DNA from: a virus
Length of the DNA stretch: 64,000 bases
Strand: one strand, 5' to 3'
IMG/VR virus record: IMGVR_UViG_3300029438_000229
Location: 1 to 64,000 of that record
The position numbers and the translations under genes were made by a program. This document shows positions 2,136-56,973 of the stretch, piece after piece. Below the pieces are notes generated by a model that worked only from the letters and a program-made list of their open reading frames with translations, searched no databases and had not been told where the DNA came from. Numbering within the stretch: the stretch's first letter is position 1; each line of letters begins with the position of its first letter.

Positions 2136-2184
2136 TCTTTATACCTCTTTTCAGATTGTCAGCACATATTAGATGCCTCTGGCA

Positions 2185-3225: not shown

Positions 3226-3243
3226 AGTTTATACTACCTCTCT

Positions 3244-4398: not shown

Positions 4399-4899
4399 TC
4401 AGTTGTTTTCTTTTTCGTGCCTCTCGTCGTCGCGCAGAAGGTCGTTTGCCACTGCTACGGTATCACAGGTGTAGTAGCGTCCGCAGGTGTATTCGCACTG
4501 AGTCAATGTGGCGGAGCAACCGTTGATGCAGCCCATGAAGACATCCTTATTGCCGTTCTCGTCGGTGAAAATGCCGCCGGTCGCGGTGATGCTCTCAACA
4601 TAGGGCAAGCACGGCTCGTCCGTGTCCTCACTCAAGTTCCAGACAATCTCCCAAAAGCTGATGAAGGTGTCATTGTACAAGAAAGAGGGGCGGTTACCGC
4701 TGTCTTTCCGAACCAGTTCTTCAAGGGCATCCCAAGGAACTTCATCTGCAATGAAGATGCCAAATGCGCCACAGGAAAAAACGATTTTTCCAATGTGGCC
4801 GCAGATACGGACATAGTCACCCACATGAAGCTCGTTGTCATTGGCATCGATGAAACCTGTGTCGAAGCCTTTCTGTGCCATTTCATTTGCGTTAGTCAT
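4399..4899 (-). CDS. Hypothetical protein (166 aa)
   Basis: ATG at 4899 is preceded by AAAAGGAG, directly after the terminator of cassette B. The ORF-track extension to 4950 would run through the hairpin. Confidence 0.65.
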   Translation of the reverse strand: MTNANEMAQKGFDTGFIDANDNELHVGDYVRICGHIGKIVFSCGAFGIFIADEVPWDALEELVRKDSGNRPSFLYNDTFISFWEIVWNLSEDTDEPCLPYVESITATGGIFTDENGNKDVFMGCINGCSATLTQCEYTCGRYYTCDTVAVANDLLRDDERHEKENN

Positions 4900-4928
4900 T
4901 TTAATACACTCCTTTTTGAAATTGACGC

Positions 4929-5062
4929 AAAAAAGCGGACCTCCCAACATCGGGAAGTCCGCCTTAAAGCGAAATTGTGAATTGTACGAGCGCAGTCAGC
5001 GCCTTAGTAGAATGGTATCTATCGTACAATCTCAATTATATCCGACTCGCACGAAGATGCAA
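4929..5062 (-). promoter_or_regulatory. Promoter-leader-terminator cassette, copy B
   Basis: -35 TTGCAT (5057-5062), 16-nt spacer with GCGAG, -10 TATAAT (5035-5040). Then ATTGTACGATAGATACC, hairpin GGCGC/GCGCU, TCGTACAATTCACAATTTCGCTTTAAGG. Ends with hairpin GCGGACTTCCC/GGGAGGTCCGC (4935-4962) plus T-run. Confidence 0.75.
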
Positions 5063-5301: not shown

Positions 5302-5739
5302 TCAAACGCCGAGAAGCTCGCGTTCTTCGGCAGTCAGTTTATCGAGAACCTTCTGCCTGCGCTTTTCGCGCGATTCCTGCTTGGTGCTGATGATGAAGGT
5401 ATCGGCGTGGTCGCCATTCCGCACAAAGACGGGACGGTCTTTCAGCATATTCCGCATCGCGTCCAAACGCTCTTCCTTTGTCATGTCATACATGCCGGAT
5501 GCGCCGTAAATGGAAATGTTGATTTCATCCTTTTTCGGGGTCTTATCATAGGCGGTGGGGTCTACGGCGGTGAAATAGAGGGTGTAATAGTAGCACCTGT
5601 CGGCGAGCGCCAACGCGATGGTATCGATATTTCCCTCAAAGACACCAAGGTCGGTGATGGAGCGACCCTCGCAGTCACCCTCCGTGGTGACATGCCAGAA
5701 TCCGTAGGCTTTGTCGTAAGGTTTGTTGAATTCAATCAT
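5302..5739 (-). CDS. Hypothetical protein (145 aa)
   Basis: ORF with protein-like composition but no clear SD. Confidence 0.5.
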   Translation of the reverse strand: MIEFNKPYDKAYGFWHVTTEGDCEGRSITDLGVFEGNIDTIALALADRCYYYTLYFTAVDPTAYDKTPKKDEINISIYGASGMYDMTKEERLDAMRNMLKDRPVFVRNGDHADTFIISTKQESREKRRQKVLDKLTAEERELLGV

Positions 5740-5791
5740 TGTAAATCAGGGCAAGGAGACCCGCGACTTTAGGCGTGGGAGGAATTGCCCT

Positions 5792-6512
5792 TCACATCCT
5801 TTCTATTAGATAATTTGTTGCAGGTTCTAATAGCTGCAACTTTTTGAATGAAATACTGTTTGTAACGACAGTGCCATCAAGCTTTCTGAGAGCAAAGCTT
5901 CCTGATGCACGACGACCGGAAACGAAGCACTCTTGCCCCTTGTAGAGAACCTTATCCCAAAGACGATAGCCTTCGACAACATAAGGCATTTGGCTTCTTT
6001 TGCGAATGCTACCTTTTGAGAAGTTTGCTTTATGGGTTTGACGATTGTGATGCCTTATAGCTTTTGTGCGATAGCAAACACTGCATGGTTCAGCAAATGG
6101 ATGCTTGCTGATACAACGGGCATCGTTTACATGGCTTTTCTTGATGTCATTTTTCTCTCGCAGATTCAACCGTAATGTGATTTCCTTCTTGCCCTTTTTC
6201 AACTTCTTTTGGAAGCAGTTTGCCATCCATATCGAAAGCTTCGACAAGACAAATTCCGTTTTTTTGCAAACTTGAAGCAAGTCTTTGAATGTTGCAATAC
6301 AGCTTACACCGGGGATTGCTACAAACAAATCACCAGACAGATGACTTGCAACAGATGCTTTCAAACCACCTTCTGTAATAAAGATAGTCTTTTCATCTTT
6401 TAAAGGTCTGCTCCAAAACAGTGCTGTATTTTTAGCGGAAGAACCGTTAGGATATCCGGCAGATGTTGCCCAACGGTATCGTTGCTGTTTAAGCTCTGAT
6501 GCTTCTTTCCAT
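5792..6512 (-). pseudogene. Chimeric, frameshifted ORF: Toprim N-terminal part fused to an IscB/RRXRR-type RuvC-III + C-terminal part
   Basis: AAGGAGAG-ATG at 6512 opens only a 7-codon frame. The adjacent frame reads ..FWSRPLKDEKTIFITEGGLKASVASHLSGDLFVAIPGV (Toprim). The expected LVEAFDMDG motif is in the -1 frame after an A7 run. From ~6150 the sequence reads KKSHVNDA (RuvC-III-like) plus ..GYRLWDKVLYKGQECFVSGRRASGSFALRKLDG. Confidence 0.5.
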
Positions 6513-17744: not shown

Positions 17745-19814
<2,070 letters not shown>

Positions 19815-32499: not shown

Positions 32500-35238
32500 T
32501 CAAAAATCCCCGAACGAGAGCTGACGGCTCTGTGAGACCGGGATATTGGTTTTTGGCTTTGACGAGTGCTTAACTTCCCCGTACTTGGTGAGATTCCGGC
32601 ATTTATATCCGTAGCCCTTCTGTGCGGCAGAAATCGACTTGTATCCGTATCCGCTTGCATCGTCCAGCACCTGGTCCTTGTCGTTCAGATTGACGACAAT
32701 ATACCGCACATCGTTGGGCTTAGAGAGCCGGGACGAACGAATAACGGTATAGGGGATGCGCTTATCGAATTGAGGCTTTTCTTCTTCCGGGTCCGGTTCG
32801 GGCTTTGCGACCTTCTCCTCTTCCGGCATTTCAAGCTGGACATCGACCCCTGCCTTAACGAGGGATTCGAGCGTAGAGGCAAGGGTCTCGTACCGCGTAT
32901 TCTCCACGGTATTCGTATCCTGCTTCTTCCGCTCCTTCCAGACCTTCAACAGCTGACGTTCGCTGAAATTGATGATAAGACCACGGTCTTTGAGCATCTT
33001 ACGAACAACATAGGTAGAAAGAGAAGCGTAGTTCGCATATTCGCCGATATGGTGCTTGATATCCACCTCGGTCTTGGACATAGCTGCTTCGAAATCCCTG
33101 TGATTGTCGAGCCAATCCTCAATAACGCTGAGCAGTTCCTTCTTGGACATGGATTCCTCTGCCAGCTGCTTGTTTTTCCGGACATAATCCTCACAGGCAG
33201 CGAGAATCGAATCGTAGCCGTTCATGGCGCTGTTATCGATGATTTGACGGTTTGCAGCATCCACAATGATGTACTGCTCACCACGGCGGATGATAGAGAT
33301 ACCTTCATCAGCCGTCTTCTTTTCTTCCTTGACATTGCCGCCGACATCGAATTCCGGCAGAGAATCATCGGTCATGATTTGCTCGATGATGGTATCGAGG
33401 TCCTGCGTATAGTCCTTGGAAATCGTATAGCTTTCTGCCTTGGCAAAGACCTGCTTCGTGATACAGGTGATTACCGCGTCCAGGAACTTGTCAGGGTCCG
33501 GAATCTCGATTTCATACATCATGTTATCGCGGATATTCCAGACAACACCCTGCTTTAACCCGGTTGCCAGCATATAGCAGGCACATTGCAGGAAATGCTT
33601 GTGCGCGAGCGAAGACACGAATTTCAGCAAATAGACCTTGTTGTCCTTCACGACATCCGCCATGCCGCTGATAACAAGTTTCTTCTTCGCCTTGGTATCT
33701 ACCACGGCAGTCAACTCACAGCGTTCCTGTACGGACTCGTCGGGAGTGAACACCATAGACAAGCGCTTGTTCAGGTCGGTTTCCTGCGCTCTCGTAATAA
33801 AGGGCAACTCAACCTGCTTCACATACCGGTCCTGACTCGTCATCAGCATCGTCAGGAACAGGACCTTCTCCTCCACGGATTTCCAGCTGGAAGGCAGCGC
33901 CACCTTCTTGTCGTTATGCAGGTACATGTAGAAGGCAATCGCACTGTCGATATCGTAATAATCGAAGAAGTTCGCCTGCTGGTAGATGCCGATGCAGGGA
34001 GCCAAATCAATCATCGCATCCGAATGCTTGATTTCGATTTCATGTACATCCTTATGGAAGACCGGCGTCGTATTGATAAGCTGGTAGCAGTGCTCCACAT
34101 CCTCATCGAACTTGAAATCGAACATCTCAGAGATATCGAACTTTGTATTGAACTCCTGATTTATCTTGACGGGAGTCATCAGAGTCTTATCGCTGACCAG
34201 CCCAAATCTGTCCTCTTTTTTCGGAGGCTCTACAAAGATGACCTCATCCTTACCGCGACTCGCCGCAACGCAGAAAAGGTTTCTCAGAATCTCATACCGC
34301 GCCATAGGCTGAAATACACGAGAGCACCAGTAGGATTCCGTGAAATCAAAGACAACACAGATGGGGCGCTCCATGCCTTTACTGCCGTCAAAGGTCGTAA
34401 AGATACCAACGTCTGCACCGGGTGCTACATGCTTTTCGCCATCAGGTTCCTTGATGCTGGCATATACATGGTTCTTGTCATAGAGGTTGCCGGGTCTTGC
34501 TTCAAGTTCATTCAGAACCTTTACCATAGACCCCGTTCTGGCACCGAGACACAGGACATCCTTCGGGTTCTTGGTATCCAGATAGTCTATCACCTGCTCA
34601 CGGGACATGGTCGATACCTTACAGTTCTTGTTCACGCCGTTGATATCCTTGCCCCAGATGTTTCCGAGCCGCTGTGCGAGGTCATGGGACAGGCGGAAAC
34701 ATTGCGTGAAATTGACCTGTGTGTGCTTGCCTAAGAACTTATGGATGAACGACCAGATATCCAGCGAGGTCTGGTCATAGATTTTCTGCTTCATGTCCCC
34801 AACCGCGATGATTTGAAGGCCTGGGTTCGATTCCTTGATGTATTCGAGCATCTTCGAGATTTCCTCGTTGATGTCCTGATACTCGTCGATGATAAGCACA
34901 TCAAAGTGCCCGACAGGAACGCGCTTCCTCAAGACCATCCCAATCTGCTCGCCCTGTCCGACATTCTTGATGCCGCGCCGGTACAGGATTTTCGAGGCAA
35001 ATCCATGATAGTTCTGGACCGTGACATTATCGTTTAGAATCTTTTCCTGCGCATCGAGTTTCAAAAGCCGGTTATAGGTCAGGTACAGAATCTCCTTAGA
35101 GGAATCAAACTCGTTGCACAAAACATTGATGGTGGACGTCTTACCGCTTCCGATACAGGCATCGCACAACACGTTTTTCCCGTCAAGCGCCAGCCGTACA
35201 AGGTCCTGCTGTTCGCTGGACAAGTCATTGAGCGTCAT
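32500..35238 (-). CDS. SF1 (UvrD/Rep-like) helicase with ~500-aa C-terminal extension
   Basis: Walker A CIGSGKTST, motif II VLIIDEYQD, TFDGSKGMERPICVV and VAASRGKDE. ATG at 35238 after GGAGGGA. The C-terminal extension carries two similar short modules (..YIIVDAANRQIIDNSAMNGYDS.. and ..YIVVNLNDKDQVLDDASGYGYKS..). Confidence 0.85.
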   Translation of the reverse strand: MTLNDLSSEQQDLVRLALDGKNVLCDACIGSGKTSTINVLCNEFDSSKEILYLTYNRLLKLDAQEKILNDNVTVQNYHGFASKILYRRGIKNVGQGEQIGMVLRKRVPVGHFDVLIIDEYQDINEEISKMLEYIKESNPGLQIIAVGDMKQKIYDQTSLDIWSFIHKFLGKHTQVNFTQCFRLSHDLAQRLGNIWGKDINGVNKNCKVSTMSREQVIDYLDTKNPKDVLCLGARTGSMVKVLNELEARPGNLYDKNHVYASIKEPDGEKHVAPGADVGIFTTFDGSKGMERPICVVFDFTESYWCSRVFQPMARYEILRNLFCVAASRGKDEVIFVEPPKKEDRFGLVSDKTLMTPVKINQEFNTKFDISEMFDFKFDEDVEHCYQLINTTPVFHKDVHEIEIKHSDAMIDLAPCIGIYQQANFFDYYDIDSAIAFYMYLHNDKKVALPSSWKSVEEKVLFLTMLMTSQDRYVKQVELPFITRAQETDLNKRLSMVFTPDESVQERCELTAVVDTKAKKKLVISGMADVVKDNKVYLLKFVSSLAHKHFLQCACYMLATGLKQGVVWNIRDNMMYEIEIPDPDKFLDAVITCITKQVFAKAESYTISKDYTQDLDTIIEQIMTDDSLPEFDVGGNVKEEKKTADEGISIIRRGEQYIIVDAANRQIIDNSAMNGYDSILAACEDYVRKNKQLAEESMSKKELLSVIEDWLDNHRDFEAAMSKTEVDIKHHIGEYANYASLSTYVVRKMLKDRGLIINFSERQLLKVWKERKKQDTNTVENTRYETLASTLESLVKAGVDVQLEMPEEEKVAKPEPDPEEEKPQFDKRIPYTVIRSSRLSKPNDVRYIVVNLNDKDQVLDDASGYGYKSISAAQKGYGYKCRNLTKYGEVKHSSKPKTNIPVSQSRQLSFGDF

Positions 35239-35270
35239 TGTAATCCCTCCGAATAGTAGATTGGCAGGCA

Positions 35271-35310
35271 ACAAAAAGACCCTGACAGCTATCACAACAG
35301 CCATCAGGGT
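35271..35310 (-). terminator. Leader terminator between promoter 35334-35361 and the helicase gene
   Basis: ACCCTGATGGCTGT-tgtgat-AGCTGTCAGGGT followed by CTTTTTGTT (minus strand). Confidence 0.55.
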
Positions 35311-40316: not shown

Positions 40317-41054
40317 TTACATGTTATCTTTATTATCAAAATAATCTGTCACCTTTTTCAAGCTCTCTATACTGGCTACGGTAGAATAAATTTTGTATCC
40401 ATAAGTTTTGTAATCTTGTGGAGCCGGATAGTCAAGCTGTATAAAATTTCCAACTCCTTCGAAAATTGCATAGCAAATAATAGGAATCCCAATTTCAATC
40501 AGCATGTGTTTGTTATCAATTATCTTTCCAGATGCGTTTGAAATCGTCAGTTTGAAATCGTATCCACTTGTTGTATTTTCATGCAAAATTTTATTTCTTA
40601 GATAGTAACATTTTTCCCCAGTAAATCCGTTGTCTGCGAGTGCTTTTCCATCCGGACCACCATTCTCTATTACATATTCATCAAACCATTTTTCATATCG
40701 ATTTCTTACCTCAGTTTTGCCAAAATGGGCATATGCGATTGCTCCACATGTATCGGGCAACGTAAGTGCCAGCTGTAATGCTGCCCCATAAAGACCGAAT
40801 TCCAAGCATAGATGTGCTTCCTTTGCTTTGGCGGCAATCGTATAATAAGTGTACCCATCCGGGCAGTCCAAGCCTGTAATACGCTCTTGACTTTTCAGTT
40901 CATTATAAAACGCATATTCGTTTGGTGCGAAGGGTCCATTTTTGTTTTCGCAGTACATTTCATGATTAACTCTTTGTAACTTTTCGTAGTATTCCGTACA
41001 TATCACGAAGATTCCATCTTTTGTCAATCCCATCCTTTTATCTTTCCCGTCCAT
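40317..41054 (-). CDS. HEPN/DUF4145-like protein (possible Abi-type effector)
   Basis: 245 aa in a visibly AT-rich stretch. Carries an Rx4H motif in the context YYLRNKILHEN. Confidence 0.45.
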   Translation of the reverse strand: MDGKDKRMGLTKDGIFVICTEYYEKLQRVNHEMYCENKNGPFAPNEYAFYNELKSQERITGLDCPDGYTYYTIAAKAKEAHLCLEFGLYGAALQLALTLPDTCGAIAYAHFGKTEVRNRYEKWFDEYVIENGGPDGKALADNGFTGEKCYYLRNKILHENTTSGYDFKLTISNASGKIIDNKHMLIEIGIPIICYAIFEGVGNFIQLDYPAPQDYKTYGYKIYSTVASIESLKKVTDYFDNKDNM

Positions 41055-41178: not shown

Positions 41179-41381
41179 GACCAATCTCAATAATTCAGTC
41201 AATATCCAAGTTGTCAAATTCTTTGTGAGGACGAAGATGCTCTGGACGGATGTATTGGGGTTGGTTCAGGACATCTGTCTCGGCGTTGAGTGCTGATAAG
41301 GACTGCTATAGTTTTTGGGGTGATGGTGGTTACGATGTCATGGTGAGCGCTTGTTACGGTTTTGTTCGTTACTGTGGCATA

Positions 41382-41501
41382 TCAATCGTCGTCATCATCA
41401 TTCTTATCATAGCCACTGCACTCTTCACGATGTTCGCAAAAATCGCAACAGCAATCATCTGTAAACTCACCGGTTTCCCAGCATAAGTCGGTAGGATACA
41501 T
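41382..41501 (-). CDS. Small Cys/Asp-rich protein (39 aa), below the ORF-track cutoff
   Basis: GAAAGGAGG upstream of the ATG. Sequence MYPTDLCWETGEFTDDCCCDFCEHREECSGYDKNDDDDD. Confidence 0.35.
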   Translation of the reverse strand: MYPTDLCWETGEFTDDCCCDFCEHREECSGYDKNDDDDD

Positions 41502-41756
41502 TACAAGACCTCCTTTCACATATCTCTAATTTTTCTCTTCTGATTTGCTCACAAGTTTTTTCGCGACAGATATTCTTCCAATTTTAGATAATCCATAGTT
41601 ATTATACACCATTTCTGTCCTTTTCAAAATGGTTTAGTATATTCTTAGCTTTCTCCTTCACCTTCCTCATATATTCTTCCATATACACCCAGTCAGGCTG
41701 ACCGGTCTTGTCTATGGGAAGCATAATTCTTGCAACATAAAAACAACATCGGTATG

Positions 41757-42893
41757 TCAATTATCCGACTTCACCGCATTGCACTTTTTGCACAGCATCT
41801 GCAGGTTGTTGTCGGTGGTATGCCCGCCCTTGCTCCAAGGAATGATGTGGTCGCCTTCCATATCCTTAAAGGCGTACTCGGTGTTGATGCCATTTGCAAC
41901 GCACAAGGGACACTTGTGACCTTGCCGCTCATAGGCGCGGAGTTTCTGCGACTCAGTGAATGCGCGAAGGGACAGGTGCTTCTCATCGCGCCAAGTACGG
42001 TCAGAGAGGATAAACGGGATGATGCCTGCCTTCTTGGTTACGTCATCATCCAGCACGAGTTTCTTGATGTCAGCTTCCAGAGCGTTGCTGTTGTACTGCT
42101 TTGCATGATACTTGTTGTAGAGCAGTCCCCATGCCTGTGCATCCGTAATTCCCTTCCGTTTCGTCGGGAACAACATCTTCGCCCAGTTGATGACAGACTG
42201 GAAGTAAAGCCAGAGGTCATTGGCATCCTCGTCATGCTGGTGAACCGCCATGTACATCTGCCCGGATTCCAGACCGTCACGGTCAGCAATCCATGCCAGT
42301 GCTTTTTCCAGCAACTCCTGCCGAATCGGGTTGCCTTTCAGGTATCCGTCCGCCATCTTCGCAGCAACGCAGTTGCGTTTCGAAAAGTAGTTTTTGGCAT
42401 CAGCCAGCCACGGTCCTGTGTATGTAGCGTTCAGAAGCTCCTGCGGAGTCAGAACTTCGCCAGCAATGTTAATGCGCTTGAACCATTCCAATTTCTCGGC
42501 TTCAGTGCCTTCGCAGACATAGACCGTCAGCTCATAGTCCAGAATTGCCTGCTTTTCCTCGTTGGTCAAGTTTTGGAAGAACTTGTCGTTGCCATTGATT
42601 TTGATAGGAAAATCCTTGTTAATGTACTGGGCAATAGAGACGGTACGCTGCTGCCCATCAAGAACCTCGTATGTGTCAGCCCCGGTCTTAGACCAGTACA
42701 TGACATTCAGCGGAAATCCGTTCATTACGGAATCGATGACGGCTGCACGCTGCTTCTCCCCGTAAATAAACTCACGCTGGAAGGATGGGCGAATCGTAAG
42801 ACGGTCATTGTAGCCAAAGACACCGCCATCGCCATTATCCTTGTAGTTTTCGACAAGGTCAGATACCTTGATTTTCGTTTCTGTGATTTTCAT
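41757..42893 (-). CDS. DUF262 (ParB-like) + HNH nuclease, GmrSD-like type IV restriction-type architecture
   Basis: N-terminal FQREFIYGEKQR...YEVLDGQQR. C-terminal HNH DHIIPWSKGGHTTDNNLQMLCKKCN. ATGA overlap with the upstream gene. Confidence 0.85.
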   Translation of the reverse strand: MKITETKIKVSDLVENYKDNGDGGVFGYNDRLTIRPSFQREFIYGEKQRAAVIDSVMNGFPLNVMYWSKTGADTYEVLDGQQRTVSIAQYINKDFPIKINGNDKFFQNLTNEEKQAILDYELTVYVCEGTEAEKLEWFKRINIAGEVLTPQELLNATYTGPWLADAKNYFSKRNCVAAKMADGYLKGNPIRQELLEKALAWIADRDGLESGQMYMAVHQHDEDANDLWLYFQSVINWAKMLFPTKRKGITDAQAWGLLYNKYHAKQYNSNALEADIKKLVLDDDVTKKAGIIPFILSDRTWRDEKHLSLRAFTESQKLRAYERQGHKCPLCVANGINTEYAFKDMEGDHIIPWSKGGHTTDNNLQMLCKKCNAVKSDN

Positions 42894-43648
42894 AGTTGTT
42901 TACGACCTTTCTTCTTTTGAGGCGTACACTCTTTTTTAATCTGCTTACGGAGCTTAGCCTCTTGTTGCTCTCGTAATTTCCGTAATGCATCTGACGGTGC
43001 AGCTGTATCCGGTTTTACATCGCCGCCATCCTGATACCACCCGGCAGAATCATGCATTATATCGACGATATATGTTTGACACTCCCCGCCGATACTTTGT
43101 TCTGCGTGATATTGGAATACATCGATGTTCTCAAGAAGGCACCCACGAGTTAATGAAATAGCGTTAGCGAGCGAAAGATTCTTATAGTCGATTCCGGAAT
43201 TCATTATGGCGTGTGCAACATCAGTAATACCGTTATATGAGGCTCCATAAGAGCCAATTTCTGTTGATAAAACAATAGATGATTTGGCAGTGTCGATAGT
43301 GTAAGTACAAGCCATTCTCCCAAATTCTAAATACCCACTAATCTTAAATATTGTGCAGCCGTTACCATTGACGCGGAAGTATTCATTCAATATTTTTAAC
43401 GGCAAATCATCAATGGTGGCTTGCTTCCCATATTTTTTACGTATATCATATAAGAATTGCATTACGGTCAGGTTTTCTCTTACTTTTGCATCGCCACAAT
43501 GGCTTACAACGATACGATTTGGAAAAGGTACTATTTTTTCGGCAGTGTCATCGTATTGAACATGCCCTTTACCATCCCTGCGAGTAGTGCGCGTATCAGC
43601 GCAGACAACAATGCCTTCAGGAACAATAGTATGTATAATCAGTGACAT
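42890..43648 (-). CDS. Proteasome-beta/HslV-like Ntn-hydrolase-fold protein
   Basis: MSLIIH-TIVPEGIVVCADTRTT..., EKIVPF.NRIVVSHCGDA, ..YGASYNG... and ..SIGGECQTYIVD follow the order of proteasome beta-subunit motifs. The start lies 1 nt after the methyltransferase stop. Confidence 0.55.
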   Translation of the reverse strand: MSLIIHTIVPEGIVVCADTRTTRRDGKGHVQYDDTAEKIVPFPNRIVVSHCGDAKVRENLTVMQFLYDIRKKYGKQATIDDLPLKILNEYFRVNGNGCTIFKISGYLEFGRMACTYTIDTAKSSIVLSTEIGSYGASYNGITDVAHAIMNSGIDYKNLSLANAISLTRGCLLENIDVFQYHAEQSIGGECQTYIVDIMHDSAGWYQDGGDVKPDTAAPSDALRKLREQQEAKLRKQIKKECTPQKKKGRKQL

Positions 43649-43649
43649 A

Positions 43650-44693
43650 TCACGCCTCGGCTTTCTTTTGAATGAAAATCCGCTGATAAACCGAATGTAA
43701 GTATTTTCCGTGCTTACTAACACTGTAATCGCATTTACCTTTACCCGGAATTTTTGGGGACATTTTATCTCTCAATGCGCCGGACCCAGAAGGCGAAACT
43801 CCGTCAGTCTTCAAAAATGTGTATTCGCCGTCAGGATAATACACTTCAATTCGGCAAGGCGTATCATCGAACATGGAACCACCAACAATCTCAAACTCAT
43901 CCGGGTTATACTTATCCAGAAATGTGATAGGTACGCCCATAACACCCTTGTAATCCACCGGGATATCCGCAACCCTGTCTACATTGATGGCATCGTAGTT
44001 ATCGTAGTGGGGGTAGCGCTCCTCCGCATCCGGCAAAGGATTCCCGTCATCGTCATAGTACCGCTGCCAGAGAATCAGCTTTTCGTGGCGCTTCTGGATA
44101 TCGAGGTTGGTATACCACAATTTATTCCCGAATTTTTTGATTGTCCCGTCAGGTTGTACGAATTCTTTTACAGAAGAATATCCAAGCCAGACTTCATTGT
44201 TCTTTAGCATCGGGAAAATTTCTTTGTAAGTAATCCAGTTGAGGTCTCCGATGATAACAAATTGCTTGCCATGCTCGCGTAAACACTGGACATAAGCCCT
44301 TGCAAGGGAAAAGGGCGGATTCGTTACCACAATATCGCTCTCATCCAGCAAGTCGAGACATTCCTTGTTTCGGAAATCGCCGTTACCTTCCAGCGGGGTC
44401 TTAACTCCGACTTCCACATTGTTGTCGTCCCCACCCTCGTATTCCATCTTGTAGGTGGGCTCGGTGCGGTCGTAGTGTGTGGAAATCAGCTTCTTTAAGC
44501 CGAGCTCAGCGAAGTTCAGGTGGAAATACCGCCAGAAAGCAGACCAAGTGGGGTCGTCACAGTTACAGAATACAACCTTGCCCGCAAAATGCTTTTTGTA
44601 GTGCCGCAGTTCCTCCGCGACATCCTCGATTCTGGTATAGAACTCGTCGTTCTTAGCGTCTTTCGCTTTATGCAAATTATCGTTCTTTGCCAT
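43650..44693 (-). CDS. N6-adenine DNA methyltransferase (EcoRI-methylase-like family)
   Basis: N-terminal KNDEFYT and catalytic VVTNPPF. GGAGGA upstream of the ATG at 44693. Confidence 0.85.
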   Translation of the reverse strand: MAKNDNLHKAKDAKNDEFYTRIEDVAEELRHYKKHFAGKVVFCNCDDPTWSAFWRYFHLNFAELGLKKLISTHYDRTEPTYKMEYEGGDDNNVEVGVKTPLEGNGDFRNKECLDLLDESDIVVTNPPFSLARAYVQCLREHGKQFVIIGDLNWITYKEIFPMLKNNEVWLGYSSVKEFVQPDGTIKKFGNKLWYTNLDIQKRHEKLILWQRYYDDDGNPLPDAEERYPHYDNYDAINVDRVADIPVDYKGVMGVPITFLDKYNPDEFEIVGGSMFDDTPCRIEVYYPDGEYTFLKTDGVSPSGSGALRDKMSPKIPGKGKCDYSVSKHGKYLHSVYQRIFIQKKAEA

Positions 44694-44706: not shown

Positions 44707-44740
44707 AAAAACAAAACCCCCGATGCCGTAACATCGGAGG
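44707..44740 (-). terminator. Intrinsic terminator directly upstream of the methyltransferase SD
   Basis: CCTCCGATG-ttacgg-CATCGGGGG followed by TTTTGTTTTT (minus strand). Confidence 0.65.
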
Positions 44741-44752
44741 CGTAAAAATCAA

Positions 44753-46066
44753 TTATTTATCGTTAAGAATCGCCAGCAACTCATCGAGGCTGGTCACATA
44801 CTGGTATTTTCTCGCCATCTCACCAGGCACTGGAATCAACTCGCTCATGTAATAAAGAACCTGCACTCCGTTGCTGGTGCATTCGTTATACTTGTCGGTA
44901 TCCCGCTGCTTTCGTGCCTCGAAATCCCCGTCATCGCTGCCGTAGGGGTAAAAGTGCTGCACACCCTGACACTCGATGGCGATGTTCTTGCCTGGCAGGA
45001 AGAAATCCAGACGCTTCTTCCCCATCCACGGAAACATCTTTTCCCGCTGATACTCGATACCGTTGCATTTGAGCATCATGAGCACATCGTTTTCGAGGTA
45101 GGACTTCTCGCGCAGGAAATCTTCCGTATTTCGGTAGATTACCGGCTTGGCAGTCTGACTGATAGCTTTGTTGGGGTTCAGTTTCTTGTAATGCACGGTC
45201 GTCGGTCGGACATAGACGACCTTGCCGCTTTGCAGATGCCGGAAATGTCCGCAACGCTCAGATTGGAGCACGCAGAACCCGGCAAACGCCCGTTTCCCAG
45301 CACCGTCATTCACATAGACGACGATGCCCTTTTTGAGGTCCACGATAGTCTGCTTGGAGGTATTCAGGCATTCTCTGACATCCTTGACCGTTTCCTGCTC
45401 CCCGTTCGCGTGTACGATGCGCTGCTCGACCTTCCGACTCAAACGCCGCCGTTTCCAAAGGCATATCGTGTGCAGCCAGATTTGCAGTATCAGCGCCGCT
45501 GAGCTTGGAGCCGTCACGGTGTTCCGTTCATGTAGGGAATCGCGCTCGGTTCGCAGCCACCGTTCCAGCATGTTGCCAGACTCGTTCAGAACGGAAAGGT
45601 AGCCGTATACCCCATTCCGGGTGTTCACTGCCATCATCAGCCCGTCCACGCCGAATTCCTTCTCTGCCCTTTTCAGCTCGACAAATACCGCCATTTCCCG
45701 CATCCGCCAGTTGTCGGTAGGCATGACCATAGCACAGGTATTCTCGCCCTCAAAGCCTACGAGAATCGGGCATAGGAAAGTTGTGTCAGCCCTTCTGTGG
45801 ACAATGATATATAATGACGCACCGTAGGTATCATCTACCTTGATAGCGTACTCATCGTAGGGCTCAAGCCCATACTCGCCGCGATTCAATCGAAAGTCAC
45901 CGATGACCGATTCGTTGTCGGTCGTGAGTTTCGCAATGGTAGGCAGCTGCAGGATACGAGTAAGACCCTTGACGACCTTATAGCATTCTGCGCTCTTCCC
46001 TTGCATTTGGTACTTGTCATGCGTCAAGTAGAATTCGCGTTGCCATTCGGCGCTATTATTATTCAT
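44753..46066 (-). CDS. Protein with C-terminal DUF559/Vsr-like PD-(D/E)xK endonuclease domain
   Basis: C-terminal ..KKRLDFFLPGKNIAIECQGVQHFYP....RKQRDTDKYNEC..NGVQVLYY. The N-terminal ~330 aa are unrecognised. Confidence 0.6.
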   Translation of the reverse strand: MNNNSAEWQREFYLTHDKYQMQGKSAECYKVVKGLTRILQLPTIAKLTTDNESVIGDFRLNRGEYGLEPYDEYAIKVDDTYGASLYIIVHRRADTTFLCPILVGFEGENTCAMVMPTDNWRMREMAVFVELKRAEKEFGVDGLMMAVNTRNGVYGYLSVLNESGNMLERWLRTERDSLHERNTVTAPSSAALILQIWLHTICLWKRRRLSRKVEQRIVHANGEQETVKDVRECLNTSKQTIVDLKKGIVVYVNDGAGKRAFAGFCVLQSERCGHFRHLQSGKVVYVRPTTVHYKKLNPNKAISQTAKPVIYRNTEDFLREKSYLENDVLMMLKCNGIEYQREKMFPWMGKKRLDFFLPGKNIAIECQGVQHFYPYGSDDGDFEARKQRDTDKYNECTSNGVQVLYYMSELIPVPGEMARKYQYVTSLDELLAILNDK

Positions 46067-46089: not shown

Positions 46090-47202
46090 TTAGTGCCGAG
46101 AATCTGTAGGTATGTTATTTTCTGAATCAAGTGCTTTTAGCATCTGTTCAGCTAATGCCACCGAAAGCAGCGGCGGGACCGCGTTGCCGATTTCTAAGCG
46201 TTTCAGGCAATCCGAGCCGTAGAACTGATAGCTGTCAGGAAAACTCTGCAACCGTGCTCCTTCACGTATCGTAAGTGCCCTCGAATCTCTCGGATGGATG
46301 CATCTTGATGAGGACGGACAGGCAAAGTTCCGTGTGATGGTAGTGGCGGGTTTCTCCCACCAGAGTTTCGCGTAGGTGTTCTTGAACCCGCTCTTTGGTC
46401 TGAGTTCTTCCGGCAAATCATCTTTGCCTTGCCCATCTTTGAGCGCCGCCATGATTCTGCGAAGATGGGCGCTGTTGTTCGGGGCTTTATGCTCCGTGAG
46501 CGTAGCGGATTCACTCTGCCGGACCCATTGAAGGAATGTATTGCCGGGAGGAGCGGCATACACGGTGCTTTCCTCCCCGCACGAGAGCGCAGGCAGGTCT
46601 TTAAGTGCATCTTGCAGCGTCACATACGGTAGTAGTCCTTCTCCGTGGGTAGGTTCCGGGTATTGAAAGTCATTCTCGCCCAAGAACCCAACCAGAATGA
46701 CCCGTTCCCGCAGCTGCGGTACACCGTAGTCTACGGCATTGAGGATTTTGTATTGGAGGCTGTACCCAATATCCTCGAATTCTTTGCGGACATGCTCAAA
46801 CAGGGCTCCTTTATCCATGCTCAGAATGCCTTTGACATTCTCGAACAAGAAGGCTCTCGGATGCAGGATACAGAGAACGCGCTTGTATTCCATGAAAAGA
46901 TTTGCCCGCGCATCCATTTGGCGTTTACCAAGCGTGGAGTACGACTGACACGGCGGACCACCGACCACGACATCCACTGTACGGTTTCCTATCGCTTGAC
47001 GGAGGATATCTTCAGACAGGTCTTTGATGTCGCCCTGCAGCATATTGACCGAAGGGTGGTTTAGGGTATATGCTTTCGCAATATCCTTTTGCATCTCGTT
47101 CGCCAAGATGATTTCAAAGCGGTCGTTTCTTGAAAACCCGTAACTCAATCCGCCTACACCTGCGAACAGGTCAACGACGGTGTATTTTCTTGTCTCTGGC
47201 AT
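46090..47202 (-). CDS. DNA (cytosine-5) methyltransferase
   Basis: Motifs DLFAGVGG, GGPPCQSYS, ENVKG, QLRERV and GNAVPP. ATG at 47202. Confidence 0.92.
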   Translation of the reverse strand: MPETRKYTVVDLFAGVGGLSYGFSRNDRFEIILANEMQKDIAKAYTLNHPSVNMLQGDIKDLSEDILRQAIGNRTVDVVVGGPPCQSYSTLGKRQMDARANLFMEYKRVLCILHPRAFLFENVKGILSMDKGALFEHVRKEFEDIGYSLQYKILNAVDYGVPQLRERVILVGFLGENDFQYPEPTHGEGLLPYVTLQDALKDLPALSCGEESTVYAAPPGNTFLQWVRQSESATLTEHKAPNNSAHLRRIMAALKDGQGKDDLPEELRPKSGFKNTYAKLWWEKPATTITRNFACPSSSRCIHPRDSRALTIREGARLQSFPDSYQFYGSDCLKRLEIGNAVPPLLSVALAEQMLKALDSENNIPTDSRH

Positions 47203-47235
47203 GATGACTCCAATAAAAAATCCGGCACGAATCAC

Positions 47236-48213
47236 TCATGCCGGACAATGACTTTCTTGCTCTTCAATTTTGCTCAAGATACGGTACAGTTCCGTTCCCA
47301 CGACTCTTGCAAGTTCGCAAGGCACTGCATTACCGATTTGCTTATACTTGCTCGTCAGATTCCCGCAAAAAACCATATCTTTCGGGAATGTCTGGATAGC
47401 AGCTGCTTCTTTATAGGACAAGCGCCTTGTACTGCCTTTCTCCCCGAACTGCCAATGGTCTTTGCCGACCTTCACCATGTCTGGTGACCCGGGCCAGAGA
47501 GGCACTTGCTTTGCCATAGCGGGAATTGTGAACGATACGCTGTCCCATCCGCGTTTCCGGTTCCGGGACATGTAGCGCGAGGAGTAGGCTTCTTTGCAAA
47601 TTTCATCTTCTGCCGCCGGTGCTAAACTCTCTAACGCCTGTCGGATACTGATACGGTCAGGAAAAGGTGTAGGAACCTTGAACTTTACGCCATACCTCTC
47701 AGCAAGGTCTTTTCGGATGCCCACAAGGAGGATTCGCTGTCTATCTTCCGGGACATGATAGTCCGCAGCATTGACAAGGTTGATAGACACTACATATCCC
47801 TTGCTCTCGAAATCCGCGATGATAGCGTCCTTGATTTTCCCGCCACCAAGCGTCAGCAAGCCTTTGACGTTCTCGGCGAGGAACAACTTTGGCTGCTTCT
47901 TTTCGACCAGCTTGACGCAATGCCGGTAGAGCACATTCCGGCTATCGTCGATTTTCCTTGGTCCCGACAGGCTGAAACCCTGGCACGGGAATCCAAAGGA
48001 AGCAATATCGCAATCTGGGATGGTATCGTAGTCCACTTTGCCGATGTCGCCTTCTACCACCGTGGCATTGCTCCACAGCCTATGTGTCTCACAGGCATCA
48101 TGGTTGAAGTCGTTCGCCCATACCGGGCGAAACCCGGCTTGCTCTAAGCCGATATCGAGTCCCCCTGCACCGGAAAACAGAGAGACATGCGTGTATACTT
48201 TGTTCTTATTCAT
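47236..48213 (-). CDS. DNA (cytosine-5) methyltransferase (second copy)
   Basis: Motifs SLFSGAGGLDIG, FGFPCQGFS, ENVKGL, RQRILLVG and GNAVP. ATG at 48213. Confidence 0.92.
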   Translation of the reverse strand: MNKNKVYTHVSLFSGAGGLDIGLEQAGFRPVWANDFNHDACETHRLWSNATVVEGDIGKVDYDTIPDCDIASFGFPCQGFSLSGPRKIDDSRNVLYRHCVKLVEKKQPKLFLAENVKGLLTLGGGKIKDAIIADFESKGYVVSINLVNAADYHVPEDRQRILLVGIRKDLAERYGVKFKVPTPFPDRISIRQALESLAPAAEDEICKEAYSSRYMSRNRKRGWDSVSFTIPAMAKQVPLWPGSPDMVKVGKDHWQFGEKGSTRRLSYKEAAAIQTFPKDMVFCGNLTSKYKQIGNAVPCELARVVGTELYRILSKIEEQESHCPA

Positions 48214-48255
48214 TTTGGCCCTATAAAAAATGAGCGATAAATGCGCGGAATGCAC

Positions 48256-48295
48256 AAAAAACACACGCGCTCATTTATCGAATGCACGCGTGTGT
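48256..48295 (-). terminator. Intrinsic terminator between two methyltransferase genes
   Basis: ACACACGCG-17-nt loop-CGCGTGTGT followed by TTTTTTG (minus strand). Confidence 0.6.
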
Positions 48296-48343
48296 TTAAG
48301 ATGCTTTTTGTTGGTCTTTGTGCGAAAACAAATAGCGGTATCT

Positions 48344-49201
48344 TCAACGGCTTTGCGCCGCATCGGCGATTCGCTCTTTTGCAACATCAAAAAAATCGGC
48401 ATCCTTTTCGATGCCGATAAAGTTTCTATTCGTATTCATTGCCGCCACGCCGGTCGAGCCGCTGCCCATGCAGAAATCGAGGACCGTATCGCCCTCGTTT
48501 GTGTAGCTTTTTATAAGCCACTCACACAACGCCACGGGTTTCTGTGTGCCGTGCGCTGCGCATTTCTGCTTATCTGTGGCAAAGGTCAAAACGCTCGTAG
48601 GAAATCTCTCAGTGCTGTCGTAGCTTTTTGCCTTGTATTTGCCGTAATCCTCAGTCATCTTGGAGTTCCGCTTATGCTCCGCCGTTGAGACTTTTCTTGG
48701 ATGCCCTGAGGTCTTCTGTGGGTTGTAGGTTGGCAGCTTCTTGTAAAAGACCAGGATGTCTTCATGCGCCCTTAGCGGCATCCGGTTCGCGTTGAGGAAT
48801 CCTACCGGAGATGTCTTCTGCCAGATGAGGTTGTATCGCCACGGAATGGTCTTGCCATCCATCAGGGTCTTGGTGTACGCTCCCGCCGAAAATAGAATCA
48901 CTGCGCCGTTCTCTGTCAGGATTCTATCCAGCTGCTTCCAAATCCCCTGCTGTTTATTTTCAGTCCAGATAGACATAGCATCAGCATAGGAAATCCCCGC
49001 CTTGTAGCAGGAAAGAAGAAACTCTGTCAGGCTTAGTCGCTTCCCGTCCTTCATGATGAAATCCTCAAACGGCAATACCGTATCCCAAGCCTGATGTGTG
49101 ATACCGTAGGGCGGGTCCGCTAAGACAAGGTTCACGGAATGTGCCGGAATTTCGTTCAGTTTCTCGCAGCAGTCTCCCTGCATCAGCGTAACGGTGCTCA
49201 T
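48344..49201 (-). CDS. N4/N6 DNA methyltransferase (beta class)
   Basis: LADPPYG near the N-terminus and the AdoMet motif DFCMGSGSTG near the C-terminus. ATGA overlap with the upstream gene. Confidence 0.85.
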   Translation of the reverse strand: MSTVTLMQGDCCEKLNEIPAHSVNLVLADPPYGITHQAWDTVLPFEDFIMKDGKRLSLTEFLLSCYKAGISYADAMSIWTENKQQGIWKQLDRILTENGAVILFSAGAYTKTLMDGKTIPWRYNLIWQKTSPVGFLNANRMPLRAHEDILVFYKKLPTYNPQKTSGHPRKVSTAEHKRNSKMTEDYGKYKAKSYDSTERFPTSVLTFATDKQKCAAHGTQKPVALCEWLIKSYTNEGDTVLDFCMGSGSTGVAAMNTNRNFIGIEKDADFFDVAKERIADAAQSR

Positions 49202-54807: not shown

Positions 54808-56973
54808 TTAAAGATTAAAGATGCCCAGCCAGCGCCGAAACTTGATGCCGAACAATTCCTGTGCCTGCTCGTAGTTCATGATAAGCTGGTTGCCGCCAGA
54901 AATCTCTGCTTCGAGGGAGTTCGGCAGCTCGTCTGCAATGTATTTCAGTTCGTACCAGGGTCCATCCTGCGGGTAGGTATAAATGAGCCGGTTCTGCTTC
55001 TTATCCACCCGGAACTTGCTCGGGTCTGCCTGCCATGCCAGTTCGATTTTCTCAATCGCAGCACGGCCAATGCTCTCATCACCCATGTAGTCGTTGTAAT
55101 ACAGGATGCGCACATAGTCCGGCAAATCGATTCCGCAAGCCTCGAAGATATCTGCAATGACACTGGACGAAGCGTGGAAGATATCCGGGAAGTATTCCTT
55201 GCCATTCGCATTTTCACGCATTTCCGTCGTCATCTCATCGATGCTAACAAGCATTCGGCGGACATACTCCCCATAGAACGCGGTAGTCAGCTCCGACATA
55301 CTCTCATTCACACGCTTCGAGTTCTTGGCACCGCGCTCGTTGTCGATTTTAGCACCGATTCGACAGATGATAGCGCGTTTCGAGAGGTCTTTCGTCAACG
55401 AAGTGATTTTATTGGATGTGATAGATACAGCAGGATAGTTCACGAGCCTATCAGAGATTCCCCATTCATCGTTCTTGATTACCCGTTCTGAATGGTTCTG
55501 GAACTGGGTCTTGGCGAGGTCGTCGATGTTCAGCGGCAGTCCCTCACATACTCGTTTGAGGCCATCGATTCTTGTGGCTGTAAAATCCTCCGTTGTGTTC
55601 ATCTTGACGGTCTCGCCGCACATGAGTTTGACAAGAAATTTTATAAAGGTCGTCTTGCCGCCGTTTGAGTCGCCGTATATAACGCCATACATCGGGAACA
55701 GTTTGGTGTCGTAATTGTTCCTTGATGCAAAATACCGTAGATACGCCATGAACGGAGTAGCCAGATACCAGGTCATGTACTTAAAGTAGTCTTTCTTAGC
55801 CTGCTCGACATCGCCGTAAAAGTAGTCCATGCCTGAGAAGAACTTCTGGATGCTCTTGATGTTCTTTGCCACCTCGCTGAGATTCGGATTGAGGTCGATA
55901 TTCTCGTCGTTGAAGGTCATGGTCCCTGCATCATAGTCGATATGCAGTTTCGGAAGCTGCTTAACAGCCTCAGCTGCTACACGCCGAACCTCGGTATATC
56001 GTTTCGTAAAAACACGCATCGGTTCCGCTGCCACCACAATACGATTCGCCTGTACCGGCATCTTAGGCATAATCGGCTTGACGAGCTCCTGCATCTTCTT
56101 GACATCGGCGACTATTTCGTATTCTACCTCGTCCTCAGGTTGCGCCTGTTCCAAAAAGATAAGCTTCTGCTTTTCAATGGATTGGAAGACGGGCACTTCT
56201 TTGATGTTCTCTTTCAGATAATCTTCCTGATTCATGGTGTTCACGACTGCCTTATACGAAACGTTGTCGGAGCAGGTCTCCTTGAAGGTCTCGAACAGAG
56301 CCTTATAATGCGAAAATGCCGCCTCGTCATCGAAGCAAACGATATTCTCTCGCTGGATGCCGCAAAACGCCGATGCCGACATATTCGCACTGCCAGTGAT
56401 GACTCGGACCCGCTTACGGTCAGCGCTCTCCAAGATGAAGATTTTCTCGTGCGATTTCGTGTCCCGCGATACATACAGTTGTAAGGACCCGTCATCGAGG
56501 CGGTTCGCAAGGATTCCTGCCGACTTAGACTTAGCGAGCTGCTGCACGCTGTCGATTTGCACCGACATGATGGCAGCGATGTCGGTGGCGATGATTTTCT
56601 CGCATCCGAACACGACTTCCGCATACGAGAACTTGTTGATGACCTTATTCACGAACTCGATTCCGGACGAAAAAGTGATAGCATAGAGTCTGTCGAACCC
56701 GTCAAACAACTCTTCCCAATTCGTTTCGACCGTATCGGCATATATCGCCTTCACAACACTCAGCGCCTGCGTGGAGATGCTCGCCTTTGCCTTCGTGGTA
56801 TTGTTCGCCACGAGTTTGAATGGTTTATCCGTCTGCCCTTCACTGTCCCCTGTATCTTCACCGGGGTCCAAGAGTTCTTCCGGGCCTTCTTCGGTATATT
56901 CGGGGCTTTCCGATGCCATCATGTCCATGAGCGACATCTGATTTTCCAAGTCGTTTGCTTTCCTTCGTGCCAT
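54808..56973 (-). CDS. PLD-family (NgoFVII/BfiI-like) nuclease domain fused to a P-loop NTPase (SF3/D5-like)
   Basis: HxK..(x)n..GSxN motif SHEKIFILESADRKRVRVITGSANMS. Walker A YGDSNGGKTTF and Walker B-like LPLNIDDL. AGGAAGGA upstream of the ATG. Confidence 0.75.
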   Translation of the reverse strand: MARRKANDLENQMSLMDMMASESPEYTEEGPEELLDPGEDTGDSEGQTDKPFKLVANNTTKAKASISTQALSVVKAIYADTVETNWEELFDGFDRLYAITFSSGIEFVNKVINKFSYAEVVFGCEKIIATDIAAIMSVQIDSVQQLAKSKSAGILANRLDDGSLQLYVSRDTKSHEKIFILESADRKRVRVITGSANMSASAFCGIQRENIVCFDDEAAFSHYKALFETFKETCSDNVSYKAVVNTMNQEDYLKENIKEVPVFQSIEKQKLIFLEQAQPEDEVEYEIVADVKKMQELVKPIMPKMPVQANRIVVAAEPMRVFTKRYTEVRRVAAEAVKQLPKLHIDYDAGTMTFNDENIDLNPNLSEVAKNIKSIQKFFSGMDYFYGDVEQAKKDYFKYMTWYLATPFMAYLRYFASRNNYDTKLFPMYGVIYGDSNGGKTTFIKFLVKLMCGETVKMNTTEDFTATRIDGLKRVCEGLPLNIDDLAKTQFQNHSERVIKNDEWGISDRLVNYPAVSITSNKITSLTKDLSKRAIICRIGAKIDNERGAKNSKRVNESMSELTTAFYGEYVRRMLVSIDEMTTEMRENANGKEYFPDIFHASSSVIADIFEACGIDLPDYVRILYYNDYMGDESIGRAAIEKIELAWQADPSKFRVDKKQNRLIYTYPQDGPWYELKYIADELPNSLEAEISGGNQLIMNYEQAQELFGIKFRRWLGIFNL

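Follow-up and report, generated by a model that had tools for sequence, protein, structure and literature searches.

A putative proteasome-fold peptidase gene in a hypervariable cargo slot of a predicted Type II restriction-modification locus

Introduction

Genes embedded in Hma, BREX, DISARM and Type I restriction-modification (R-M) loci are often defence systems themselves, and those embedded in Hma have given confirmed systems, those in the other three kinds of locus candidates (bioRxiv 10.1101/2024.01.29.577857). The embedding of defence genes in R-M loci is already known, as is the existence of proteasome homologs in bacteria and phages. Here we analyse a three-gene locus in a 64,000-nucleotide stretch of viral DNA (positions 1 to 64,000 of the IMG/VR record IMGVR_UViG_3300029438_000229, hereafter the window). 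In this locus a gene for a proteasome-like protein, X, lies between the genes of an EcoRI-family methylase, M, and a DUF262-HNH nuclease, R. The junction between M and R is a hypervariable cargo slot, in which X is one interchangeable cargo among about 20. The recognisable cargos are known or candidate defence effectors, and X may belong with them.

Results

X is packed between the genes of a predicted Type II pair

The three genes lie head to tail on the minus strand. M (43650..44693) encodes a 347-amino-acid (aa) N6-adenine DNA methyltransferase of the EcoRI family with the catalytic motif NPPF. X (42890..43648) is a low-GC cargo gene, and its 252-aa product is predicted from fold and alignment to be a proteasome-beta-like N-terminal nucleophile (Ntn) hydrolase. 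R (41757..42893), the conserved anchor of the locus, encodes 378 aa with a ParB-like DUF262 domain (DGQQR) followed by a CxxC...CxxC HNH nuclease. At the M/X junction (TGAtATG, 43646..43652, minus strand) the M stop codon TGA at 43652-43650 is separated by one base from the X start codon ATG at 43648. At the X/R junction (ATGA, 42890..42893, minus strand) the stop of X overlaps the start of R. The M start, MAKNDNLHK, is common to its homologs. A Shine-Dalgarno-like GGAGG precedes the ATG of M, and GAGG precedes X.

The reading frames and junctions bear out the tight three-gene arrangement, and all its coordinates, that had been proposed from the sequence before any database search (the original prediction). 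That prediction also placed an intrinsic terminator ahead of the cassette, with no promoter in between. A hairpin scan located a terminator-like G+C-rich hairpin with a T-run at 44716..44741 (minus strand), ending the upstream 437-aa gene. It has an 11-pair stem, read from 44741 to 44716, with 6 GC pairs, and is followed by TTTGTTTTTG. The point holds, but is trivial because the gap between the hairpin and the M start is only 22 nucleotides (nt).

M matches PF13651 (EcoRI_methylase) at 6e-104 in Pfam and the PADLOC model MTase_II at 3e-101, as expected from its earlier description as an EcoRI-methylase-like gene. R matches PF03235 (GmrSD_N) at 1e-20 and PF01844 (HNH) at 6e-12 in Pfam, its C-terminus corresponding to PF01844/PF14279. 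Its motifs include an invariant DGQQR at residues 79-83, DH...N...N and two CxxC pairs. The PADLOC REase_II model PDLC03418 matches R over its full length (1.9e-131). M and R are separate adjacent genes in which the catalytic motifs of both are intact, and a methylase lies upstream of R in 65 of the 67 evaluable loci of the census described below. The pair also occurs without X, namely in the loci L018, L020, L101 and L106 and on the Dietzia plasmid pI, where M and R are spaced by 3 nt and stand beside Shedu and Abi genes.

R had originally been taken for a modification-dependent nuclease of the GmrSD/BrxU type. The domain description stands, with a DUF262 domain carrying DGQQR and a His-Me finger, but the class assignment is not supported. 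The nuclease domain is a classical HNH and not DUF1524, a cognate methylase is adjacent, and the Type II endonuclease model matches from end to end. Together with the X-less M-R pairs, these observations argue against R being a Type IV enzyme. The structure prediction of R is of low confidence, with a predicted local distance difference test (pLDDT) score of 63 that falls below 50 in the middle domain. A fold search with it returned domain-level ParB and HNH matches only, and the match to BrxU from this low-confidence model is weak (E 0.018). A nuclease attacking modified DNA would defeat itself alongside an m6A methylase, so a methylation-blocked Type II system is the economical reading. The locus is a predicted mobile Type II R-M pair, in which a DUF262-HNH endonuclease accompanies an EcoRI-family m6A methylase.

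The M|R junction is a hypervariable cargo slot

We surveyed 80 metagenome loci, mostly from human gut, that carry relatives of R at 66-99% identity. Enough upstream sequence for evaluation was available in 67 of the 80, and an open reading frame (ORF) of at least 90 aa between M and R was counted as cargo. A cargo gene is present in 63 of the 67 loci, and the cargos form about 20 families that are unrelated to one another. X is the cargo in two of the 67 (L043 and L044) and, with L105 from outside this subset, in three of the 80. M and R are adjacent in L106, which belongs to the 67, and in L101, where the upstream sequence was too short to count. The R of the window shares 92-98% identity with that of 50-odd loci whose cargos are different. 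The M|R junction is a hypervariable cargo slot, and X is one interchangeable cargo among about 20.

Several cargo families resemble known or candidate defence genes, judged from representatives of the larger families. A TIR protein of the CAP12/Pycsar type fills the slot in 13 loci (CAP12-PCTIR_TIR in Pfam, 1.5e-22; PDC-S35 in PADLOC, 2.7e-24), and classical TIR proteins do so in nine (TIR_2 in Pfam, 1e-18; PDC-S66, 2.4e-38, and ThsB, 6.6e-24, in PADLOC). DUF4145 with a zinc ribbon is found in five loci (Pfam, 6e-4), and also in L019, and HEPN in three (Pfam, 1e-4). Several further families are without annotation. At least 12 slot families have no match in Pfam or PADLOC; examples are found in L033, L040, L051, L066, L079, L080 and L092. 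They include a 163-aa membrane protein (6 loci), a 338-346-aa protein (4 loci), and proteins of 275 and 288 aa. By the logic of embedding, these unannotated families are defence candidates.

The cargos share more than their position. Among the loci listed, they end between 4 nt inside R and about 25 nt before its start, and X does likewise. The GC content at third codon positions (GC3) of the 11 cargos tested, X included, is 0.25-0.39, compared with 0.60-0.67 in R. Tight packing, a foreign composition and the exchange of alleles thus belong to the slot as such and do not single out X. R is alike in length and termini whether it is accompanied by X, by one of about 20 other cargos or by none.

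Locus L036 carries a paralog of the X family outside the slot, about 900 nt downstream of R (5550-6347; 36% identity; start MSLIIHF…). Upstream of R in the same locus, a 500-aa ORF (1987-3489) that has no match among PDB sequences stands in place of the EcoRI-family M.

X moves as a cassette

Comparison of the window with L001, a locus of the same element family, reveals a mosaic. Identity is 92-95% in the upstream genes and the M core and 98% in R, but only 60% in X (52-73% at the nucleotide level), and it changes abruptly at both edges. The 3' end of M (43650..43868, minus strand; residues about 276-347) is without similarity although the M core is 95% identical. This low-GC segment, which is exchanged along with X, lies between the conserved motifs QFEIVG and Y.RI.I. 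GC3 is 0.35 in X and 0.41 in the M 3' end, compared with 0.60 in the M core, 0.64 in R and 0.56-0.68 in neighbouring genes.

In L022, where the gene order is M-165aa-49aa-X-R, a leftover foreign M C-terminus of 49 aa (4840-4989; …CPKQFEIVG…YSRIFVRR…) is found between an intact M and X. This ORF is the scar of a cassette insertion. The identities of X and R are also incongruent across loci (X/R pairs of 60/98, 65/77, 50/37 and 55/39%), and at large distances X is better conserved than its partner R. Because of the mosaic identity, the low GC3, the L022 remnant and the incongruent X/R identities, we conclude that X moves as a cassette, together with the donor M 3' end, between R-M backgrounds. 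Both the M alleles and the cargo are mosaic, with R as the conserved anchor.

Two other explanations were considered. A functional tie between X and the co-swapped M C-terminus is unnecessary, the segment being a non-conserved stretch between two recombination anchors. Diversifying selection on X, suggested by 60% identity against 98% in R, was rejected on account of the abrupt boundaries, the foreign GC3 and the persistence of X beyond R at large distances.

In the loci from L032 to L111 in which R is 92-98% identical to that of the window, the methylase core is only 62-96% identical.

X has a predicted proteasome fold

X itself has no match in Pfam (E<=0.01), PHROGs, NCBIfam or PADLOC. Among 5.8 billion clustered proteins, 51 homologs were found at E<=1e-3, all labelled at most as hypothetical protein. 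Weak matches to PF00227 (Proteasome) are present in 19 of the 36 aligned X homologs, the best at 6.9e-6, the window protein itself remaining below threshold. Two homologs match PF09894 (Connectase) at an insignificant E of 0.067.

An AF2 model of X, built from the alignment of its homologs, has a pLDDT of 91.9 and a predicted template modelling score (pTM) of 0.88. A Foldseek search with the model returned 377 PDB chains at E<=1e-3. These are led by beta subunits of the 20S proteasome (E about 1e-9), with target-normalised template modelling (TM) scores of 0.67-0.75. Anbu appears below them at 1.4e-8, and no HslV or BPH chain is among the top 50 of the PDB list. In the BFVD viral library the top match is a gut-phage protein named proteasome beta type-2 subunit (8e-12, TM 0.70/0.80). 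Fold prediction and Foldseek thus confirm the Ntn fold, a four-layer alpha-beta-beta-alpha architecture, that had been read from the order of motifs in X, described at the time as that of a proteasome-beta/HslV-type hydrolase. The model also includes a basic C-terminal helix (residues 221-241).

Sequence comparisons were less sensitive. With phmmer of X, and with a profile of the 36-sequence alignment (A1), proteasome-beta matches among PDB sequences remained sub-threshold and a spurious FEM1C ankyrin ranked higher. The X-family profile found no HslV, BPH or Anbu chain among PDB sequences at E<=10. An hhalign comparison of A1 with single HslV and T. acidophilum beta sequences was without power, at a probability of about 0.1. 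Against 1.84 billion cluster representatives, a profile of the family recovered a wider set of relatives, 529 at E<=1e-3, 176 at <=1e-10 and 41 at <=1e-30.

The register of the active site is provided by the homolog P0041, which phmmer aligned to the mature beta5 subunit of P. falciparum (5fmg_L, E 0.0017), with query residue 5 on chain residue 4. In this register Ser2 of X corresponds to Thr1 of beta5, Asp18 to Asp17, Arg20 to Arg19, Lys38 to Lys33 and Gly52 to Gly47. Gly187-Gly188 of X aligns to the Gly-Gly of the C-terminal active-site loop. Met1, Asp18, Lys38, Gly187 and Gly188 are invariant in A1, and Ser2 is present in 35 of the 36 sequences. Among 158 full-length relatives, 149 have Ser and 4 have Thr as residue 2, and 148 have Asp at position 18. 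Almost all relatives matched by the profile align from their own residue 1, mostly MS.... The positions of beta5 Ser129, Asp166 and Ser169 are not conserved in X, being Tyr or variable, Glu or variable, and Ile, respectively. Gln184 is nearly invariant in the X family.

It had first been proposed that X starts with a propeptide, MSLIIH, followed by a catalytic Thr. This assignment falls, as Thr7 is replaced by Ala, Ile or Met in 4 of the 36 close homologs and is freely variable in the wider family, while Ser2 aligns to Thr1 of beta5 without a propeptide. We read Ser2 as the putative N-terminal nucleophile because Ser and Thr interchange directly after Met and keep a fixed spacing to the Asp and Lys. 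Cleavage of the initiator Met before Ser is well established. Removal of Met1 by methionine aminopeptidase would expose Ser2 as the nucleophile, which would work with Asp18 and Lys38.

No ATPase or alpha-subunit gene is found in the operon or among its conserved neighbours. Since a T1-like nucleophile and fold are predicted, while some features of T1 members are lacking, X is best called a putative distinct family within the proteasome (T1) superfamily.

M-X-R recurs in diverged lineages

The co-occurrence of the three genes is not confined to the window. A neighbourhood search, suggested with the original prediction, recovered the M-X-R order in at least five diverged X lineages. It is present in L001-3, which belong to the same element family as the window, in L007-9, which have a Fusicatenibacter-like conjugative context with TopB, and on the two IMG/VR contigs L016 and L017. 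In L023-25 a divergent helix-turn-helix (HTH) gene is followed by M-86aa-X-R.

X also occurs in other settings. In L013 a Type I hsdS gene stands on one side of it and an integrase with an HsdR-like helicase on the other, and in L010 it is found amid GIY-YIG, Eco57I-like and ResIII genes. L004 (4237-8455) has an X homolog between two ZnF-DUF7487 proteins of ~580 aa, the first of which contains a methyltransferase-like segment (PADLOC mad2, 1.4e-9; MTase_II, 6e-6). The arrangement in L004 may represent an R-M-like pair, so far uncharacterised, that keeps the M-X-R order. A relative of X is found in L012 on a phage-like contig that carries a giant RNA polymerase gene. The neighbours of X in L010, L012, L026, L029 and L030 gave no informative family matches.

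A blastn search of the cassette against phages and plasmids returned distant M and R matches only, including the X-less M-R pair of the Dietzia plasmid. The two families differ greatly in size, R having more than 7987 clusters (90% identity) at E<=1e-20 and X having 51.

Genes surrounding the locus

Near-identical cassettes are found on IMG/VR contigs of the viral class, and metagenome contigs as long as 371 kb carry them too. PHROG matches are few in the window, which contains no tRNA.

Upstream of M, a 437-aa protein (44753-46066, minus strand) is encoded between M and the Dcm methylases. Pfam gives no match for it, but its C-terminal ~130 aa match PHROG families of homing/HNH endonucleases (1.7e-18) and have a Vsr/DUF559-type look (RLDFFLP...IAIECQG). 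Alongside M-R in L001-3 the gene is 93% conserved, and roughly one in five of the related loci has it. Further upstream (46090-49201, minus strand) stands a row of three methylases, two for C5-cytosine (PF00145) and one of the N6/N4 type (PF01555), with no nuclease recognised among them.

Downstream of R, a 245-aa gene of low GC (40317..41054, minus strand; GC3 0.34) matches only PHROG 18591. It is not conserved at this position in L001, and an 81% identical homolog lies downstream of R in L061. The gene suggests a second variable cargo position after R, although its membership in the system is uncertain. Directly after R, a 52-aa ORF (41602-41760, minus strand; …LPIDKTGQPDWVYMEEYMRKV…) resembles the C-terminal remnant of another R-M-type protein. 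A stretch of ~430 nt (41323-41752) is replaced in L001 by ~200 nt.

Elsewhere in the window, all on the minus strand, are genes for a 721-aa NgoFVII-like nuclease of the phospholipase D (PLD) family (54808-56973), an NAD-dependent DNA ligase with BRCT (17745-19808) and a 934-aa UvrD-like helicase (32500-35304). In the IMG/VR locus L016 the helicase gene likewise stands ahead of the cassette.

Discussion

We propose that X is an autonomous, co-expressed anti-phage effector or sensor-effector peptidase, a reading that may well be right and may equally well be wrong. It is drawn from the company that X keeps. The other slot occupants are recognised or candidate defence effectors (TIR, CAP12-TIR, HEPN, DUF4145, PDC-S35, PDC-S66), which makes a defence effector the most likely role for X. 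X is itself embedded in the same sense, nested between R-M genes at a position that holds defence genes in other loci. Cassettes consisting of a donor M 3' end and one low-GC gene are swapped by recombination between the conserved M core and the conserved 5' end of R. Nesting in an addictive R-M operon would give X expression, mobility and protection from deletion. During infection, X would cut either a protein of the phage or an essential protein of the host, and it would be dispensable for methylation and restriction.

A more far-reaching version of this proposal, which we hold tentatively and regard as doubtful, makes X the first anti-phage family with a proteasome fold. X would be a propeptide-less, ATPase-independent N-terminal-serine peptidase that acts as a direct effector or as a PrrC-like guardian. 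The M|R junction would be a natural store of about 20 or more exchangeable defence cassettes, the majority without annotation.

Several points weigh against an anti-phage role. Guilt by embedding is a statistical argument only, and a clear function is missing for more than half of embedded genes (bioRxiv 10.1101/2024.01.29.577857). Remote relatives of X occur in a conjugative element and in a Bacillus-type chromosomal neighbourhood (ylbD/E/F), and because of these ordinary contexts the X superfamily is not specific to defence. X was not found by tblastn (1e-3) in phage or plasmid records, nor in GTDB representative genomes by a narrow scan with the A1 pattern. The protein is a single catalytic domain of 250 aa with a basic C-terminal helix and has no obvious sensor module. 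BPH, a stand-alone proteasome homolog that likewise has no ATPase partner, was inert on standard substrates in vitro (PMC5777263). Finally, X lies directly upstream of R in all its R-M contexts, which also fits a role directed at R.

One such role would be that of a guardian resembling PrrC, which we think unlikely. X would then lie latent on R or M until a phage anti-restriction protein blocks the R-M enzyme, and its protease activity, set free, would abort the infection. The position of X is analogous to that of prrC inside the Type IC locus EcoprrI; PrrC is activated when T4 Stp inhibits the enzyme (PMC12707154, PMC2610378). X abuts or overlaps the start of R in each R-M context, favouring co-translation, and in the Type I-like and DUF7487 loci it also lies just upstream of a restriction gene. 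Against this, X alleles swap among R backgrounds that are 37-98% identical, which opposes a specific X-R interface unless the interface is very conserved. The TIR and HEPN slot-mates correspond to candidates that consist of one gene (PDC-S35, PDC-S66) and do without an R-M partner, the X paralog of L036 stands outside the slot, and some relatives of X have no R-M genes nearby.

X could also be a hitch-hiking passenger with a non-defence role, for example an anti-defence protease that breaks down immune proteins of the host or a factor that acts on host proteins in the course of transfer, that is kept because deletions across M|R are counter-selected. Close copies of X on IMG/VR viral-class contigs and in conjugative-element-like contexts are consistent with this idea, as is the relative on the phage-like contig with the giant RNA polymerase gene. 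The orphan-looking methylase battery of the window is typical of elements that evade host restriction, and degradation of restriction endonucleases by mobile elements has been proposed, though not demonstrated (PMC12707154). The identifiable slot-mates are defence-type effectors, with no known anti-defence genes among them. We regard a passenger of this kind as improbable.

A further role directed at R is the one first suggested for the locus, in which X would be a protease devoted to activating, destroying or timing the DUF262-HNH nuclease. It would be a built-in counterpart of the restriction alleviation that ClpXP brings about in Type I systems, easing establishment in a new host. The M-X-R order with its TGAnATG and ATGA coupling, kept in five diverged X lineages, would suit such a module. 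The element is mobile, hence the establishment problem is real, and ClpXP is known to control HsdR by proteolysis in Type IA/IB systems (PMC12707154). The slot census speaks against it. About 20 unrelated families fill the same place, all abutting R. Packing tightly on R thus characterises the slot and not X in particular, and a dedicated module of methylase, protease and nuclease is poorly supported. The length and termini of R are unchanged whether X, another cargo or no gene accompanies it, so no X-specific propeptide or degron is visible in it. X fills the slot in three of the 80 close R relatives, has 51 clusters against the more than 7987 of R, and does not co-diverge with R. Control of the nuclease by X is therefore quite improbable.

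That X is a catalytically inert scaffold on a proteasome fold is very improbable: conservation does not extend to the equivalents of Ser129, Asp166 and Ser169, the window protein reaches no Pfam threshold and the stand-alone BPH was inert in vitro (PMC5777263), but Ser or Thr at residue 2 is near-universal, at fixed spacing to Asp18 and Lys38, in more than 150 proteins that are otherwise 20-30% alike, and the Ser-to-Thr interchange there is the signature of a retained nucleophile.

An autonomous anti-phage peptidase remains the reading we prefer. No family model in PADLOC, Pfam, NCBIfam or PHROG describes X, and we found no paper on a proteasome or Ntn homolog in an R-M operon or in anti-phage defence, within an incomplete coverage of the literature. 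Neither the literature searched nor these models contain a described R-M module with a proteasome-like protease between methylase and nuclease, in agreement with what had been stated at the outset. Three elements appear to be new: a proteasome-fold family with a predicted Ser nucleophile and 529 cluster representatives, which is without a family model or literature; the placement of this family inside R-M operons; and a hypervariable cargo slot in a Type II pair of M and DUF262-HNH nuclease.

If the proposal is true, a protease of the proteasome superfamily joins the candidate bacterial immune effectors. A single-domain protein of 250 aa with a defined candidate catalytic residue is easy to test. 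Guilt by embedding would be extended to two-gene Type II R-M systems that are common in the gut microbiome. The slot would also offer a compact shortlist of new defence candidates, in which TIR and HEPN proteins alternate with a dozen unannotated families. If instead X regulates R, this would be the first case of an R-M system that encodes a protease of its own to control restriction.

Compared with known systems, X shares with proteasome beta subunits (MEROPS T1, PF00227) the predicted fold, a predicted N-terminal nucleophile and the equivalents of Asp17, Arg19, Lys33, Gly47 and the C-terminal Gly-Gly. It differs from them in having Ser for Thr, no propeptide, an extra basic C-terminal helix, and Gln184 instead of Ser129/Asp166/Ser169. 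With Connectase (MJ0548) it shares the nature of a single-gene enzyme of proteasome fold without a ring partner or ATPase. Connectase is a monomeric proteasome homolog of archaea that acts as a sequence-specific protein ligase; it has a Thr nucleophile and an added C-terminal domain that is unrelated to the tail of X.

HslV/CodW, BPH and Anbu are, like X, propeptide-less, with a nucleophile exposed by removal of Met, which for X is a prediction. The BPH operon is without a partner ATPase, as is that of X, and Ser nucleophiles are known as exceptions in CodW, one Anbu and non-betaproteobacterial BPH (PMC5777263). In the X family Ser is the rule (149/158), in contrast to these rare exceptions in HslV/CodW, BPH and Anbu. 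The genomic context differs as well, X being found in R-M and mobile-element settings and HslV, BPH and Anbu in stress or heat-shock operons.

Restriction alleviation by ClpXP in Type IA/IB systems is the only established proteolysis of a restriction subunit (PMC12707154). ClpXP is a housekeeping AAA+ protease of the host, encoded outside the R-M operon and acting on translocating HsdR, whereas X is encoded in the operon. The controller (C) proteins of R-M systems are small HTH regulators upstream of R, whereas X has a predicted Ntn fold and no HTH. R itself shares with the Type IV enzymes GmrSD and BrxU an N-terminal ParB-like DUF262 with DGQQR and a C-terminal His-Me-finger nuclease. Those enzymes are about 580 aa long with a DUF1524 domain, while R has 378 aa and a PF01844 HNH with two CxxC pairs.

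The closest likeness is to embedded defence genes and to prrC in EcoprrI. X differs from these in matching no PADLOC model, and a guardian role for it is hypothetical. What they have in common is a variable gene between modification and restriction genes, the alternates of which are known or candidate defence genes. In the preprint on embedding the host loci are Hma, BREX, DISARM and Type I R-M (bioRxiv 10.1101/2024.01.29.577857), whereas here the host is a two-gene Type II R-M system.

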